A DNA stretch of 64,000 nucleotides from a phage, in the NCBI GenBank assembly GCA_025832235.1, contig GCA_025832235.1_3649.1; one strand, 5' to 3'. Below, piece by piece: positions 3,916 to 34,951 of the stretch. The position numbers were made by a program, and so were the translations under genes. The notes beneath the pieces were generated by a model. The model was not told where the DNA came from. It searched no databases and worked only from the letters and a program-made list of their open reading frames with translations. Positions within the stretch are counted from its first letter, which is position 1. Every line of letters begins with the position of its first letter.

Positions 3916-4233
3916 ATGCAAATTGAAATCACTGGCAACGTAGAAATCACTGAAGGTATGGTGTCTTTCATTTCCAACAAAATGTCTAAACTGGAGCGTT
4001 TGCACCCCTCTGCCAACTATGCACGTGTGAGTGTAAAAGTTGAAAATGATCACCAGGAAGTTATGGCGTTCATTTTTGACAATTCTGGAAAAGAAGTTAT
4101 TGCCAAGGCTAAAGGTAGTGATGCTTACGAGGCAACTGACCGTATGGTAGATGTTGCAGCACGTCAGCTGGCTAAATGCGGTGGAAAGAAAGGTAAGGGG
4201 AAAGGCAAAGTAAAGATTGACTTTGGAAAATGA
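3916..4233 (+). CDS. hpf: ribosome hibernation-promoting factor / YfiA (RaiA) family homolog
   Basis: 105 aa; MQIEITGNVEITEGM...KLERL...VSVKVE...AKGSDAYEATDRMVDVAARQLAK parallels E. coli HPF (MQLNITGNNVEITEAL...KLEQY...VLKVE...AEGQDMYAAIDGLIDKLARQL) recalled from memory; Lys/Gly-rich tail; own promoter and SD. Confidence 0.75.
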   Translation: MQIEITGNVEITEGMVSFISNKMSKLERLHPSANYARVSVKVENDHQEVMAFIFDNSGKEVIAKAKGSDAYEATDRMVDVAARQLAKCGGKKGKGKGKVKIDFGK

Positions 4234-4242
4234 GGTGCTACA

Positions 4243-4344
4243 ATGGGTGTGATTAAGAAATTAGTCCCAAATGTAGAGATTGCATGCTTTGAAATTATGT
4301 TTGCAATCGCAGTTGTAGTTAATGTGTTAGGTTACGGCTATTAA
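4243..4344 (+). CDS. small hydrophobic peptide (33 aa)
   Basis: Hand-translated MGVIKKLVPNVEIACFEIMFAIAVVVNVLGYGY; GAGGTG SD 6 nt upstream. Confidence 0.35.
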   Translation: MGVIKKLVPNVEIACFEIMFAIAVVVNVLGYGY

Positions 4345-4370
4345 TATCAAATAATTGAGGAGACCTCTAA

Positions 4371-4640
4371 ATGAAAATTAAATTATTCAAAACTGAGCTG
4401 GCAGACAAAAACTGTGGACTGGTTGAAGGCATGATTGTTGAAGCACAACCAGTGGACTATATGAAGGTGGTTCGTGATGCCCTGGGTGAAGGTTTTGATC
4501 TGATGGAGCCAGCTCTGCGAGAAGATGTTATCGAGATGGCTAAAAAGCACACACCTGAAGGTTTGGTGGTGTTTGTTGCACCGGGTAACGGAGAAGAATT
4601 GATTGTAACTCCTGATGTGTATGAGATTGTAGAGGAATAA
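4371..4640 (+). CDS. hypothetical protein (acidic C-terminus ...VYEIVEE)
   Basis: ORF track; SD GAGGAG; C-terminal motif shared with 5000..5332, 5807..6064 and 6065..6415. Confidence 0.6.
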   Translation: MKIKLFKTELADKNCGLVEGMIVEAQPVDYMKVVRDALGEGFDLMEPALREDVIEMAKKHTPEGLVVFVAPGNGEELIVTPDVYEIVEE

Positions 4641-4731
4641 TCCTGCTTGGATTAGCATACTTCCTCGATAAGGAAGATTTGTAATTATTTGTGGGAAAGG
4701 AATCCCAATCTCTTACCAGAGGTGATACTAT

Positions 4732-4995
4732 ATGATTGTTTATTTTAAAACTTCAGGTGGATACCCTGATTCTCAAAGCTTGATCGGAAAAACGTGCACA
4801 GCATACTCACCTCTTGATGAGGAGGTAAGCGATATTCTACGAAATATGTATCGGATTGACCCCCAAGAAGCCTTTGATCAAAACCTTGTATTTGTCAAGG
4901 GTTCAGATATGAAGTCTTTGGGAGCATTCCCTGAAGCAGATGATGATGCCGTTTATTCGTTCATGACTCCTTTTGAAGCTATGGTTGTTGGGTGA
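4732..4995 (+). CDS. hypothetical protein
   Basis: ORF track; SD GAGGTG upstream. Confidence 0.55.
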   Translation: MIVYFKTSGGYPDSQSLIGKTCTAYSPLDEEVSDILRNMYRIDPQEAFDQNLVFVKGSDMKSLGAFPEADDDAVYSFMTPFEAMVVG

Positions 4996-4999
4996 TAAT

Positions 5000-5332
5000 A
5001 TGAAAGTACGCTTTATTGGTGAAACAATTCCTGTGCATCTCCGGTCTCCTGAGGATTCTGCAGATCTTGCATCTCAAAAGGCGAGAGGTTATGATAAGAA
5101 AGTAACCTCAACCGATGTAGTGCTTGAGGCTACCAGTCTACCTGACCCTGCTGCATTCTTTAATCATTATGGGTACTATTTCAGCAATCTGATGAATATC
5201 GGTGAGCTTGTGTTTATTAGTGGTGGAGAGATTGTTAGCAAGCTTGGCGGCGATCCAGATGTCTTTCATGAAACCTGTCCTTTTGCATTTGTGGTAGGTT
5301 CAGATGTGGAAGTTATTGAGGAGGTGCGGTAA
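5000..5332 (+). CDS. hypothetical protein (C-terminal ...VGSDVEVIEEVR)
   Basis: ORF track 4973..5332; in-frame ATG at 5000 avoids overlap with upstream gene. Confidence 0.5.
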   Translation: MKVRFIGETIPVHLRSPEDSADLASQKARGYDKKVTSTDVVLEATSLPDPAAFFNHYGYYFSNLMNIGELVFISGGEIVSKLGGDPDVFHETCPFAFVVGSDVEVIEEVR

Positions 5333-30565: not shown

Positions 30566-30969
30566 TGATCAGTCTCCTTCTTGTTAAGTCTGAATACTGC
30601 AATAATAGCATTCCCAAGGTGCAGTGTCAAGTCATTTCCAAGATACCACAGCATTCCACGGTCATCTTTGATGAAAGGGTAGCAATTTGGTGCCTTCTCT
30701 TTAATGAAAGGGTGACAATCTGGTGCTTTCCAGACATTGTACACTTTCCCAACCTGAAAGAAATCAGGCCCTGTTGGGATTTTAGTGCCTGGCCACACTT
30801 GAGATACCTGAACACACTCCACCTGCATAATAACAGGGATAGTCATGGATGTAAATGTTTTTGTTGGTTCTACTACCATAAAAGTCTCCTCTTTGCTCAA
30901 CAACACTTCCATGTGTTGATAGTTTACATTAGTGACAATCACCCCAGTTACGACCACACAAGTATTCAC
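30562..30969 (-). CDS. hypothetical protein
   Basis: ORF track (GTG start overlapping end of polymerase exon 2); true start uncertain. Confidence 0.45.
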   Translation of the reverse strand: MNTCVVVTGVIVTNVNYQHMEVLLSKEETFMVVEPTKTFTSMTIPVIMQVECVQVSQVWPGTKIPTGPDFFQVGKVYNVWKAPDCHPFIKEKAPNCYPFIKDDRGMLWYLGNDLTLHLGNAIIAVFRLNKKETDQ

Positions 30970-31282
30970 CTGTGATCTGGAACGGGACTCCCATCATTTT
31001 AGAAGCTTGCCAGAAGCAATGCACCACCATTTCACCCACAGGGCTCCAGATAAGTTCAAGCTTTCCGTCATCGTTCAGGATAGGATCGTACACCGTGTTT
31101 CCGTCTCTGTCAACCACTTCGTTTCCGTTTTCATCCTTGCGTGCCTTTTTGTACTTATGACCGTCGAACACATGAAGTTTGGCTTCCTGCTCTGCCTTAA
31201 ATGCTTCCAGTTCTTCAATTGTGTCGAAGGTGTACACAGTCTTATACTTCGGTGTGTCAGGCACTTGAAGTTGGTACTCATC
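30929..31282 (-). CDS. DNA polymerase (family A, T7 gene 5-like), exon 2 (C-terminal, begins with the DE of motif C)
   Basis: Translation DEYQLQV...GEYLCGRNWGDCH; C-terminus parallels T7 DNA polymerase ...TEGKMGPNWAICH; no SD or start codon of its own. Confidence 0.7.
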   Translation of the reverse strand, partial: DEYQLQVPDTPKYKTVYTFDTIEELEAFKAEQEAKLHVFDGHKYKKARKDENGNEVVDRDGNTVYDPILNDDGKLELIWSPVGEMVVHCFWQASKMMGVPFQITGEYLCGRNWGDCH

Positions 31283-31558
31283 CAATAGTTCAGGTAGGTC
31301 GTTAAGCTACCCCGCACCATTACGTGCATAGCCATACGTTTTCACGTAGGATCGGACCATCTCATATTCCTATGATAAGCAACCACAGGAATCCTCCCAT
31401 TTCGACCGCACTTGCTGGTCTACTTCCTTTCGGAATGGCCTCTGAGCGTTCGCTCTTTTGAGCGCTTCGTTGCGGATTACCTTGCCATAAGGTTTAGGCT
31501 TCCCGCAGTTAAAGAGGTTATTCGACATAGATTACTCTATGAAGCCACAATGTTATTT
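31283..31558 (-). mobile_element. group I intron (276 nt, ORF-less) in the DNA polymerase gene
   Basis: Splits H|DE of motif C; 5' exon ends in U, intron ends in G; IGS GUGG pairs with exon CCAU; P-like AACUGCGGGAAG (31499-31510), Q-like AAUCCGCA (31471-31478), R-like GCUCAGAGGCCA (31436-31447), S-like GAGAUGGUCC in canonical order; stops in all frames. Confidence 0.7.
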
Positions 31559-34500
31559 ATGGTAATAAATAATACGACGAACACCTTCATCGTACCACCC
31601 ACGCTTCACCATCTGGCGGTGCATGAGTATTCCAACTAAGTCACACAGCGATGCACCACCATTTTGTTGGTATGCATTAAGTAAAGAGTGTTTAGATCTG
31701 GTCCAGATAGCATGACCATCAAAAGAGTAGATAAACTTCTTACCCGTTGCTTCCCAGAATTTCTCCAGATCTTCTTTACGCCCCTTAAGACCAGGGTTGG
31801 CATCCCAGAGTGCATCGATTACCCTTTGTCCCAACTCTGGAGAGATGTCCAGCATATCTGCAACTTTATCTTTTTGTGCCCCATACATAACCCCATACGT
31901 GATAGGTTTACCGTCGTTACGGGAAATCTCCTTGCCTGCTACAGAAGAGTAAGCTTTGGCGTTATTACAGTTACCGCACACTGCCACTTTACCATTCCTT
32001 CTCACAATGATTGCTCCAGAAGGGACGGTAACGCAATAAACCAAAGAACCGCTCACCTCGACAGACTCTTTAGATAGTGTCAGCAACCCTGCTCTCTGTT
32101 TGCTACCAATTGTGATTCTGTGCTGCACGGCACGACCTTTTTTGTGAATCGCCACCGTATTATTCCGTAAACCACACTGAGTAGCCAGCGCAGACACCAC
32201 CTCTACAGATTTCTTCCTGCACTCGGCCTGGGAGTAGTAAGCAACCTTTCCACCTTCGGAAGATACCCACCCGTCCCAGTTAGATAAAGAAGCTATAAAC
32301 AGGTTTTTAGATTCTTTATCAAGGTTCATCAGGTTATAGGTGAAATCCTTATTGTTGTCCAAAAACTCAAATACCCAGGACGGAACGTGGAATTGGAACC
32401 TTCTCGCCAGTAAGCCTCCTTTTGTGGTTTTCCCGCTCTGCTCTACATAACTAAGGCTTAGAGCAGAAAAAGTATCTAAAAGCGTTGCAACTTTTCTTCC
32501 CTTTCCGACCTGAATCCTGCACACGATGCTGCCGTCCTTATTTGTATGCAAGTGCCCATCATCGTGAATAGCAATAAGCAAATTAACCTGGGCAGGAGAT
32601 AAGGTTGTATTCCCATAAAACTCTGCCGCATGGATAAACCTTCTTCCTGAATTAGACCCTTTACCTGCTTTCAGGTCTTTTGCCAAATCTTCAAACAATT
32701 TATTGCTTCTGTGATCCACAGTCAGCATCCTGTGTTGATCTGTAACCATAAAATCCACACTACTGTTGTGGAAATGATACATATCCCCACAATAACTACG
32801 CTTAACGTAATTTAATGGAGTAACAAGGTTCATTGACGAGGTGTTGTGATCGTACTGGAACACTTGTGTTCCCGGATCAAGATCTTCAAACCTCACCCAC
32901 CCTTTCTCCGTGAGAATTTGTGTATCTCCTGAATAACAGTGTGCATCGCCGTTACTTACAACATCGTAATACAGGCCGTTGTCGAACTCAAAGGCACCCC
33001 AAGCCCCGATAAGCTGCTCTAAGTTGGACCCGTCAATACCGATCTCAAAGTATCCTGGAGGAACACCCCACAGACTACGCATCTCTTTACCCATAACCAC
33101 TTTAGGAGATGGTTTAGGCATGTTTGCACAAATACTGTGTTTCTGTCGGGAAGTGTTTGTTAATCCAGAACTTTTAGCAGGAAGCTTATGGTCAATCTTC
33201 AAACGTGGGTGATTAAGAAGACCAGTATCAACCTTATCCTCCTTGATTGGATCAAGGACCGATCTGCGGTTTCGCAATGATAACCACAAGACGATATCTT
33301 TAGCCATCTCTCCGTTCAATTTTTCAAGATTCGGGCATAGGTGTCCAAACGTATCTTTCAGTTGCGGAGAAGTAATAAGTGCCCTAGCTTTTCTACGTAT
33401 TTTCCCGAATACTTCCTTTTTAATCCTTTCGGAGTTAGGAAAGCTTCTGAACTTGTGCACGGTTGTCTGGAACTTAGCATCAGTTTTGTTCCAGAAGTTG
33501 ATAATTAGGTCACAATACTCTGACTCTAAAAGCTCGTCCATATATGCATACACTCGTGCATCAACATCTGCATCAGGTAGAGCTTTCTTCTTGCTGTCTT
33601 TAGTTACATCCTTAGTTCTCCACATTGTCGGAAGCCAACCAGCACTGATCAGGTATCGCTTAATATCGTCCTGATTGCTGATTTTCATAGGTATCTTGCA
33701 GTCAGGCATTCGCTTCTGCTGTAGATCACTTATTGCCTGATCCATTAGCTCTTTAGGTAAAGGTTGTGGTGTGGAGGTGCCCTTGATATAGCCCCTCAAG
33801 AAATCCGCCATCTTATCAGGGTCTTTACAGCCCATCTCTTCACACCATTTTATCCCCATCTTACTGACATCTCCTGTGGAGGTAAATGCTCGCTTAGGAG
33901 GAGCTTTGAATTCTAAAGCACTCATGTCCACAGGGTAGCCAAGCTTGTCTTTTAACCATTTCCAACCATTATTGGAGATTGTCCCATCCTGGTTAAACGG
34001 CTTTTCAGGGAACTTAGGCCGCTGAGACATTGATAACTCTTTTAAAGGAAGTTGTGGTTCAACACGATCAGCGATCTCTTTCATCCACGCATCGCAGCGG
34101 TCACGTAAAGCAATAGCCCCATCTATGTCGAAATACACACCCTGTCGAGCCTGCAGCTCCATCAGGAAATGTTGCAGCATGCCTCGGCGTAATGCATTCT
34201 TCCAGGTAATCTTCTTGAATCCTTTAGGCTTCTCTTTGGCAGGGTCATACATAAAGTTCTGCATGTCAGATTTGCCGTAGAATACACCTTTTGATTCCGC
34301 TACCAACTCTTTCCAGAGCAACTCCTGGATGATAACGTCCTCGAACACACGATCCACATATTTCCACAGCGGAAGATCGCGCCAGTCATCAATTTGAACT
34401 TTCTGGTTACCAAGGGCGTAGCCCCATGCCATAAGGCCGTGAGGACCAACAGGTTGCATTTTCTTAGTAACCGGGTTGAATACAGCGTCCGGACAACCTT

Positions 34501-34951
34501 TTGGTAAAGGGCGATCAGGCCACAAGATTCGGCTCATAGCCAACGTATCAAACAGGTTAACCTGGTGGTCGTTGATAGTCCCCATGCATTTAGGATCACG
34601 GAACATATCAAAATGAATACCGGATAATCTTTCCATTAGCATAAAGTCATAACTGTAGCAGTTATGGCAGTTCAAAGCTGTTGGTGACCAGTCAGAATTG
34701 CCTGTAAGCCAACCTTCCAACTCCGAAAAATCTGCTATGCGAACTTCAAAATCTTTATAAAGAGTTTTCTTTGCCAGAATGAAGTTCTTAGCCTTTTCTA
34801 TATCCTCCTCGGAGTAGTGTGTGCGGTCATTTAGAGGAAGGAACAGCATAAAACGGTTCTTATTCAGCTCTTTAAACAGACCGCAGTGATAATAAAGATC
34901 TGGGTCTTCCAGCAAACCGGATGACTCAAAATCGAAAGACCACATACTCAT
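31559..34951 (-). CDS. DNA polymerase (family A, T7 gene 5-like), exon 1, containing an in-frame intein
   Basis: N-terminal 3'-5' exonuclease motifs (FDFESSG, CHNCYSYD, GPHGLMAWGYALG); motif A IDGSNLEQL; motif B KPITYGVMYGAQK; ends ...RRIIYYH where HDE is expected. Confidence 0.85.
31970..32938 (-). mobile_element. intein (323 aa) with LAGLIDADG-type homing endonuclease domain
   Basis: Block A CYSGDTQILTEKGW, block B LTVDHR, LAGLIDADG-like LLIAIHDDGH and FIASLSNWDGW, C-terminal VYCVTV...VAVCGN followed by +1 Cys; flanking exteins NGDAH|CNNAKAY restore a T7-like NGDIHTKNQIA segment. Confidence 0.75.

Follow-up and report, generated by a model that had tools for sequence, protein, structure and literature searches.

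A probable functional and mobile Gly-Asn intein in the DNA polymerase gene of Vequintavirus phages

Is the insert in the DNA polymerase gene of an rV5-like phage a working intein, or is it one in decay? The question concerns positions 31970-32938 of a phage contig (GCA_025832235.1_3649.1), analysed here as a stretch of 64,000 nucleotides (nt) that we call the window. A preliminary description, made from the letters alone, took this insert for an intein with a LAGLIDADG-like endonuclease domain. It also considered that the Gly-Asn ending meant either an unusual splicing mechanism or decay. We conclude, with a probability of about 0.85, that this is a functional, mobile intein of the Vequintavirus polymerase, as sequence comparisons and a structure model suggest. 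The identification as an intein-endonuclease is backed by a presence/absence polymorphism among relatives, by homology to an intein family, and by a confident structure model. The parts of the gene considered first are the following.

31970..32938, minus strand: intein coding sequence; 323 amino acids, 35.9 kDa, pI 9.1; residues 672-994 of the 1248-amino-acid polymerase precursor.
32939..34951, minus strand: N-extein of the DNA polymerase, 671 amino acids, ending in ...NGDAH; placed by alignment with T7 DNA polymerase.
31559..31966, minus strand: C-extein in exon 1 after the +1 Cys codon; it holds motif B and ends in ...IIYYH (first residue of motif C).

The open reading frame (ORF) carrying the insert has 1132 codons on the minus strand (31553-34951). 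Its product is a T7-like family A DNA polymerase of Vequintavirus (rV5-like E. coli myophages). The genus was assigned by DNA similarity, with a top match 96.7% identical across 3.8 kb. The insert consists of 969 nt and 323 codons without a stop. It starts with CYSGDTQILTEKGW and ends with VAVCGN, and the next codon (31967-31969) encodes Cys. Translation reproduces exactly the coordinates first proposed and the Cys after VAVCGN; the strand (minus) had been missing. Alignment with T7 DNA polymerase also agrees with the proposed place between polymerase motifs A and B. In this alignment, GIDGSNLE corresponds to GID475ASGLE (motif A), NGDAH/C to NGDIH506/T507 (the slash marks the junction), and RNDGKPITYG to R518..K522..Y526 (motif B). 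From this comparison, the insertion point appears to lie between the equivalents of T7 His506 and Thr507, directly after the conserved D-x-H histidine, in the fingers/active-site region. In the T7 ternary complex, that histidine (T7 His506) presumably touches the incoming nucleotide. A protein identical to the exon 1 product is public as MCV8988943.1, under the name 'hypothetical protein [Escherichia coli]'.

The distribution of the insert among relatives is discontinuous. With a 3.8-kb query we obtained matches in 136 phage records; in most cases, rV5 included, the match extended over just 72-74% of the query. When rV5 (DQ832317) is compared with the window, the uncovered part is exactly 969 nt, and its polymerase frame is continuous without the insert. 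The 969 nt are precisely absent from rV5 and from about 109 other records. The junction reads ...SNGDAH/QNNAEAYTKVAGREV... in rV5 and ...SNGDAH[intein]CNNAKAYSSVAGKEI... in the window; the rV5-type empty site is GGAGACGCACAC/CAAAACAATGCTGAGGCATATACAAAAGTA. Only seven records carry the insert: Mangalyan, JEP1, NHEP1, 241Ecol014PP, EPFV3-03/2025, YP-6, and VB-EcoM-WM (hereafter WM). Together with the window they make up the eight Vequintavirus alleles compared below. One protein cluster contains members of 1132 and 809 amino acids, a difference of exactly 323. GenBank labels the whole ORF as DNA polymerase or hypothetical protein, and none of the seven insert-bearing records has the intein annotated. 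The preliminary description would have abandoned the intein if the insert aligned as a normal polymerase domain in related phages; instead, most close relatives lack it and keep the polymerase frame intact.

Homologues of the insert are found in many other proteins. A word-indexed protein search with the intein gave nothing at E<=1e-3. An exhaustive HMMER search of 1.84 billion representatives gave 7,698 homologues at E<=1e-3, and the best 150 of the 7,698 were nearly all full-length (1-323) matches within longer proteins. The host proteins of the homologues are PolA, the small subunit of ribonucleotide reductase (RNR), the UvsW, DEAD, SNF2, and DnaB helicases, NAMPT, and RuvB; thymidylate synthase is also among them. 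PolA, the RNR small subunit, helicases, NAMPT, and RuvB are typical intein hosts. With its precise absence from about 109 relatives and these homologues, the insert goes far beyond what chance would give. PHROG families derived from PhoH and RNR proteins with inteins align over its full length, at 7e-19 (PHROG 32482) and 5e-9. The family was found in 209 phage records. As a side observation, many relatives have two or more inteins of this same family in a single protein (for example P0004, P0008, P0010, P0014, P0017, and P0020).

The fold points in the same direction. A single-sequence AlphaFold model was unusable, with a predicted local distance difference test (pLDDT) of 34. We used instead an AlphaFold (AF2) run from a 41-sequence alignment, which reached pLDDT 94 and a predicted template modelling score (pTM) of 0.91. 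Foldseek against the PDB matched this model with the TliVMA intein (6e-15), PI-SceI (1e-14), PI-PfuI (1.5e-12), and also PI-TkoII. For the Hint part, the match was the AceL NrdHF intein (6ZGQ), with a root-mean-square deviation (rmsd) of 1.3-2.2 A. The middle domain matched I-DmoI (E ~1e-6; template modelling score, TM, 0.57-0.60 on target) and the nuclease domains of PI-SceI, PI-PfuI, and TliVMA. Sequence and model together indicate a genuine bifunctional intein, in which a double-motif LAGLIDADG homing endonuclease is nested within a Hint splicing domain. The nuclease features are these.

32084..32620, minus strand: nested LAGLIDADG homing-endonuclease domain, roughly residues 107-285; indicated by Foldseek and by relatives that match Pfam LAGLIDADG_3, with a dN/dS (non-synonymous over synonymous rate, also written omega) of 0.10.
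32555..32584, minus strand: LAGLIDADG motif 1, NLLIAIHDDG, residues 119-128; putative catalytic Asp127, which ends helix H115-127 in the model.
32270..32299, minus strand: LAGLIDADG motif 2, FIASLSNWDG, residues 214-223; putative catalytic Asp222, which ends helix H208-222 in the model.

Both LAGLIDADG-like strings noticed at the start are thus present, and each occupies the C-terminal end of a helix in the model. Two helices ending in D127-G128 and D222-G223, plus the I-DmoI-type fold match, are the marks of a two-motif monomeric LAGLIDADG enzyme, which has its two acidic-Gly helix ends some 90-100 residues apart in an alpha-beta-beta-alpha-beta-beta-alpha pseudo-dimer fold. We extracted and aligned 132 full-length homologous inteins, and all the family counts given here refer to them. 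Asp127 is conserved in 126/132, Gly128 in 113/132, Asp222 in 127/132, and Gly223 in 117/132; K149 is present in at least 126/132.

The splicing motifs were located with the same alignment.

32897..32938, minus strand: block A, the insert start given above; Cys1 (codon 32936-32938) is the presumed first nucleophile; Cys1 in 132/132, with T10, G13, and W14 conserved.
32726..32743, minus strand: block B, VTDQHRM, with T66-D-Q-H69-R70-M71 (B:7, B:10, B:11, B:12); placed by family conservation.
32708..32725, minus strand: LTVDHR, residues 72-77; not a conserved motif, since His76 is not among the common residues of its family column.
31988..32044, minus strand: block F, LVYCVTVPSGAIIVRRNGK; Cys302 at F:4, where most inteins have Asp; aligns with C124/P128/G129 of the AceL NrdHF intein.
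31967..31987, minus strand: block G and the +1 residue, VAVCGN/C; Gly322 penultimate, Asn323 cyclising, Cys+1 extein nucleophile; all conserved in the eight Vequintavirus alleles.

Block B had been assigned to LTVDHR, seven residues away from its true place at VTDQH. There, B:7 (Thr66) is Thr or Ser and B:10 (His69) is His in all 132 members, and B:11 is Arg or Lys in 90/132. T66, H69, R70, and M71 align with S65, H68, R69, and M70 of the AceL NrdHF intein. In block F, Cys302 is found in 132/132, Pro306 in 113/132, and R313, as Arg or Lys, in 130/132. Position G:5 is Thr, Ser, or Cys in 120/132 (Cys321 in the window), and the penultimate G:6 is Gly in 127/132. The last residue, G:7, is Asn in 119, Gln in 12, and Asp in 1, so that 131/132 have Asn or Gln. 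Members ending in Gly-Gln instead of Gly-Asn number 12/132. At +1, Cys occurs in 79 members, Ser in 40, and Thr in 12. The window intein has, therefore, Cys1, a C-terminal Asn323, Cys+1, a TxxH block B, and a Hint fold. The penultimate His, typical of inteins but not obligatory, is replaced by Gly322.

What does the Gly-Asn ending mean? Given the frequency of Gly at G:6, the ending is the family consensus and not a lesion. Judging from the alignment and from characterised relatives, it seems to be the normal functional signature of a large known phage intein family. In the RDF intein of mycobacteriophage Bethlehem, splicing is complete when the native Gly is present, and the G316H substitution results in precursor accumulation (Kelley et al. 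2016, PMC5050341). The AceL NrdHF intein (S65, H68, R69, M70, C124, P128-G129, T144-G145-N146) needs only minutes to splice (Hoffmann et al. 2020, PMC7891396). Its G145H substitution abolishes activity, through a predicted clash with Arg69 (PMC7891396). This Arg69 (B:11) lies 2.5 A from the C-scissile carbonyl, R69A slows the reaction, and the arginine compensates for the missing His (PMC7891396). The equivalent residues in the window intein are T66, H69, R70, M71, C302, P306, C321, G322, and N323. Gly-Asn termini have long been known in the Ceu ClpP, Ctr ThrRS, Pno RPA2, and Cre RPB2 inteins (PMC1635734). By analogy with the relatives, where Arg at B:11 compensates and a change from Gly to His is harmful, the penultimate His would be dispensable here too (PMC7891396, PMC5050341).

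Selection on the insert is purifying. All eight Vequintavirus alleles keep every key residue. Between the window and WM inteins, dS is 0.47 and dN 0.046, with an omega of 0.098. By part, omega is 0.06 in Hint-N, 0.10 in the nuclease domain, and 0.12 in Hint-C. The splicing and nuclease parts are alike under purifying selection, and the intein is not decaying. Decay is contradicted because dN/dS is about 0.1 in each subdomain, catalytic residues are retained in eight alleles from viable phages, and there are signs of recent mobility. The early inference from Gly-Asn to an unusual mechanism or to decay is, consequently, not supported in the terms in which it was posed.

These signs of mobility come from the comparison between the intein and its host gene. 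In six phages the inteins are 98.7-99.8% identical, and their polymerase exteins 93.2-97.1%. Conversely, the WM intein shares only 88-89% identity with the others, and its exteins share about 96% with those of the window and of several further phages. The divergence of intein and host gene disagrees in both directions, which indicates recent mobility. In addition, N-extein haplotypes are common to intein-bearing and intein-less phages. On the other side of the insert there is a short tract linked to the intein.

31925..31969, minus strand: intein-linked C-extein tract (+1 to +45), the sequence that follows the intein at the window junction; 19/45 nt and 6 amino acids differ from rV5, including Gln to Cys at +1.

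The tract is sharply bounded, five of its codons have only a synonymous difference, and the N-extein side is almost unchanged. It is present in 8/8 intein-bearing alleles and in 0/4 aligned intein-less alleles. Identity to the composite junction reaches at most 82.5% in the approximately 109 intein-less records. Among 116 records, we found no intein-less allele with the intein-type C-extein (Cys+1), which would be a sign of precise loss or of a pre-adapted site. We read the tract as a probable co-conversion tract from a diverged donor. The resident alleles have Gln at +1; therefore, splicing requires the co-conversion of at least the +1 codon. Inteins of the same family occur at this site in distant PolA genes, such as P0009 (with an identity to the window of 46% in the exteins and 40% in the intein) and P0007 (39% and 37%). 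The D-x-H site is, therefore, an old and recurrent intein home.

How might the protein splice and spread? The gene would be transcribed, the group I intron described below would splice out and restore motif C (H/DE), and translation would give the 1248-amino-acid precursor. Cys1 would then carry out an N-S acyl shift, aided by Thr66 and His69 of block B, and the N-extein would move to Cys+1. Cyclisation of Asn323, aided by Arg70 in place of the G:6 His, would follow. Finally, an S-N shift would join DAH-CNNAKAY in a polymerase of 925 amino acids. By analogy with the AceL NrdHF intein, Arg70 (B:11) may fill the space of the His, polarise the C-terminal scissile carbonyl, and leave no room for a His side chain. 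Cys302 occupies the position where an Asp normally coordinates both junctions, and it could activate or position the nucleophiles or serve as a relay thiol. The released 36-kDa intein could act as a homing endonuclease on intein-less alleles (...GDAH/QNNAEAYTK...) during co-infection. Repair would copy the intein plus about 45 bp of donor C-extein, a tract that would supply the obligatory Cys+1 codon.

Several observations weigh against a functional, mobile intein, and they were considered together with the explanations that they would favor. Curated profiles recognise the sequence poorly. Pfam Hint_2 gives 23.6 bits for the query itself, under its 28.4-bit threshold, and TIGR01445 an E of 0.056. 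The scan of the query with Pfam and NCBIfam found no match to a LAGLIDADG or intein C-terminal model. The search with profile hidden Markov models (HMMs) for Hint and LAGLIDADG, which had been suggested as a check, thus gives sub-threshold matches for the N-terminal Hint part and leaves the nuclease and C-terminal blocks unmatched. Among 41 family members, Intein_splicing matches 8, LAGLIDADG_3 matches 2, and Hint_2 matches 2; the annotation is missing because curated models cover the family poorly. These low scores, as well as the absence of the penultimate His, would agree with a decaying or splicing-defective intein in which Gly is a disabling mutation. For the Ceu ClpP intein, also with Gly-Asn, splicing in E. 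coli reportedly depended on a change of Gly to His (Wang and Liu 1997, cited in PMC5050341 and PMC4031507). Such a defect is nevertheless very improbable, and the dN/dS values and retained catalytic residues led us to reject it. The Gly is the family consensus, omega is near 0.1, and Gly-Asn relatives splice efficiently and are harmed by a change to His (PMC7891396, PMC5050341). Furthermore, the insert occurs in eight viable phages of independent isolation, within a polymerase that is essential and beside its active-site His, where an unspliced 36-kDa insert should be lethal. We give practically no credit to a lineage-specific polymerase domain or an unrelated insertion. The GenBank names, simply DNA polymerase or hypothetical protein for the whole ORF, would suit it. 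It is refuted by the precise absence of the insert in most close relatives with an intact frame, by homologous sequence inside unrelated proteins (RNR, helicases, NAMPT, thymidylate synthase), and by a fold that agrees with intein-endonucleases. The discordance between intein and exteins could partly reflect ordinary recombination between co-infecting phages, and not nuclease-driven homing. From this comes the possibility that the splicing domain works and the endonuclease is dead or mobility was lost, with persistence by vertical descent and ordinary recombination. Only 7 of some 116 to 136 related genomes have the intein, and recombination of co-infecting vequintaviruses could yield mosaic patterns. 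We find this improbable in view of the omega of 0.10 in the nuclease domain and the retention of both catalytic Asp and Lys149 in 8/8 alleles and more than 95% of the family. The near-identical inteins in polymerase backgrounds 3-7% apart and the short donor-type C-extein tract that always accompanies them also speak against it.

A different doubt concerns the splicing route of a functional intein. We consider a class 1-like mechanism the most likely from the motifs, with Cys1, invariant in the family, as its presumed initiating nucleophile. The role of Arg70 is carried over from a relative whose identity is only 24-25%, and just 90/132 members have Arg or Lys at B:11, which weakens that part of the proposal. 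Of the class 3 triplet (WCT: Trp at B:12, Cys at F:4, and Thr at G:5; Tori et al. 2010, PMC2807308), the F:4 Cys is invariant, G:5 is Cys in the window, and B:12 is Met instead of Trp, which is the MCT variant of the proven class 3 AceL NrdHF intein (PMC7891396). In class 3 inteins, the F:4 cysteine is the initiating nucleophile (PMC2807308, PMC4031507). Two other class 3 traits are lacking: position 1 does carry a nucleophile, and +1 is Cys here, not Ser or Thr. Cys302 could still be the true nucleophile, either by a class 3 start with a dispensable Cys1 or by a thioester relay from Cys1 to Cys302 to Cys+1. WCT inteins with Ser1 or Cys1 still splicing by the class 3 route were reportedly described by Tori and Perler in 2011. 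The nearest solved Hint relative, AceL NrdHF, has been proven to be class 3; it shows the same R-M pair at B:11-12, F:4 Cys, Pro-Gly kink, and T/S-G-N ending, and modelling places its F:4 thiol at 3.0 A from the N-scissile carbonyl (PMC7891396). We hold this alternative as unlikely, albeit less so than a loss of mobility. An invariant Cys1 is hard to explain if dispensable, and position 1 is typically Ala, Pro, or similar in class 3. The Thr or Ser at B:7, a class 1 TxxH trait, is invariant here, and class 3 inteins are unconserved there (PMC7891396). Cys stands at +1 in 60% of the members, as opposed to nearly always Ser or Thr in class 3 (PMC5222942). Moreover, Kelley et al. handled the Bethlehem RDF relative as class 1 (PMC5050341). 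With similar reserve, we put forward tentatively that the family, with its invariant Cys1 and block F Cys and its fixed Gly-Asn, could be a mechanistic intermediate of class 1 and class 3. It could take the form of a three-cysteine relay (Cys1 to Cys F:4 to Cys+1), or of a living progenitor of AceL-type class 3 inteins by Cys1 loss.

Compared with known inteins, the functional, class 1-like intein proposed here is closest to AceL NrdHF (Ace Lake metagenome, probable phage; PDB 6ZGQ). This is its best PDB sequence match (E 1.8e-4) and its closest Hint structure, at 24-25% identity. Both have Ser/Thr at B:7, His at B:10, Arg at B:11, Met at B:12, Cys at F:4, and the block F Pro-Gly kink. They also share an F:13 without His, Thr/Cys at G:5, Gly at G:6, and Asn at G:7. 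On the other hand, AceL NrdHF has Ala1 and Ser+1, is proven class 3 and naturally split, with a GIY-YIG gene between its halves and no nested endonuclease, and resides in the RNR protein NrdF. The window intein is contiguous and has Cys1, Cys+1, and a LAGLIDADG domain.

The Bethlehem RDF (phosphoesterase) intein is a full-length LAGLIDADG intein of similar size (317 amino acids) that aligns to window residues 6-323 (30 bits). Its motifs are Cys1, TANHR, VWCLRVP (F:4 Cys), and TGN/S, and its nuclease is toxic in E. coli (PMC5050341). The mycobacteriophage ET08 gp3 and Corynebacterium phage P1201 thymidylate-synthase (Thy) inteins show the same VTPNH[RK]M / VYC.TVP / RRNGK / GN pattern. These mycobacteriophage-type inteins differ in their host proteins and sites, in their actinobacteriophage hosts, and in an identity of about 24%; none is in a PolA gene. 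The F:4 position is usually Asp in inteins (PMC4031507).

PI-SceI (Sce VMA), PI-PfuI, and TliVMA have the same two-domain architecture and fold (TM 0.6-0.7 on query) and would have the same splicing and homing life cycle. Their identity to the window intein is 11-14%, and they are larger, with 366-454 residues in solved chains. These three end in the canonical His-Asn. The Mja RpolA' intein, a subject of Chen, Benner and Perler in 2000, is said to end in Gly-Asn. The Ceu ClpP, Ctr/Cpa ThrRS, Pno RPA2, and Cre RPB2 inteins (PMC1635734) end in Gly-Asn like the window intein, and several have LAGLIDADG domains; they are likened to it by the ending alone. Unlike the window intein, the Ceu ClpP, ThrRS, RPA2, RPB2, and Mja RpolA' inteins are eukaryotic, organellar, or archaeal. 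The need for Gly to His in E. coli ascribed to Ceu ClpP, in the second-hand accounts mentioned above, is the opposite of the behaviour of the window intein's family.

The nearest cases by position are metagenomic PolA inteins at the same D-x-H site (P0007, P0009, P0015, P0021, P0026, P0050, P0076, P0087, and P0133), inserted at D-x-H / [CST]xNA. They belong to the same family (37-40% identity for P0007 and P0009) and end in Gly-Asn as in the window. Conversely, they come from uncharacterised sources, their host polymerases are 23-46% identical, and their +1 residue is usually Thr or Ser.

The same polymerase gene holds a second intervening element.

31283..31558, minus strand: group I intron, 276 nt, without ORF; it splits motif C between the His and Asp codons (T7 H653/D654); Rfam RF00028, 64.7 bits, E 4e-14.
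30929..31282, minus strand: polymerase exon 2, DEYQLQV...GDCH and stop, 117 amino acids; contiguous with exon 1 in NHEP1.

The polymerase ORF stops after ...IIYYH because this intron interrupts motif C. NHEP1 has no intron and a fused gene of 1248 amino acids, and this fixes the exact junction. The intron ends show U at -1 and a terminal G. With an intron and an intein in one polymerase gene, RNA splicing and protein splicing are both needed, and the mature polymerase after both is predicted to have 925 amino acids. The intron is polymorphic: without ORF in the window and rV5, with an HNH ORF in Mangalyan (4022-4528) and VB-EcoM-WM (4021-4527), and absent in NHEP1. An additional HNH gene lies 3' of exon 2 in 241Ecol014PP (4531-5178). 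Intein and intron states combine variously across these phages. In rV5 (DQ832317; 1230-1829) and most related records, exon 2 and the intron appear in the annotation as small hypothetical proteins of their own (rV5 ORFs 225-227). The polymerase coding sequence of the same records is truncated at the in-intron stop, a systematic mis-annotation in Vequintavirus. Sixteen related phage genomes are labelled 'Campylobacter phage', though they are 96-97% identical to E. coli vequintaviruses. We found no further inteins in the other large ORFs of the window, and no tRNAs in the window.

A literature search for an intein in the polymerase of rV5 or Vequintavirus did not find a description, and the announcement of the Mangalyan genome is silent on intein, intron, and polymerase. 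The element is unannotated and belongs to an intein family already known, and we found no description of an intein at its PolA site; its Gly-Asn ending and its architecture were already known. Nothing is overturned, and Gly-Asn inteins and the chemistry of the family were already documented.

Both the intein and the group I intron are unannotated, so that Vequintavirus polymerase genes are routinely mis-split or mis-sized. This mis-annotation touches phages under development for therapy. Curated intein HMMs miss the family, and therefore it is probably under-counted in surveys. The window intein is a possible test case for the Gly-Asn / Arg B:11 / Cys F:4 active site. If the idea of an intermediate state were true, a cultivable E. 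coli phage would offer a tractable genetic system for the class 1/class 3 transition. In that case, the three active-site cysteines might also permit a redox control of polymerase maturation. For the genus itself, this is a clean natural intein polymorphism in cultivable E. coli phages, with near-isogenic partners that carry the intein or lack it. There is a second, diverged intein lineage at the same site, and the obligatory co-converted Cys+1 codon travels along. Together, they make a good setting in which to measure how inteins home during phage co-infections.

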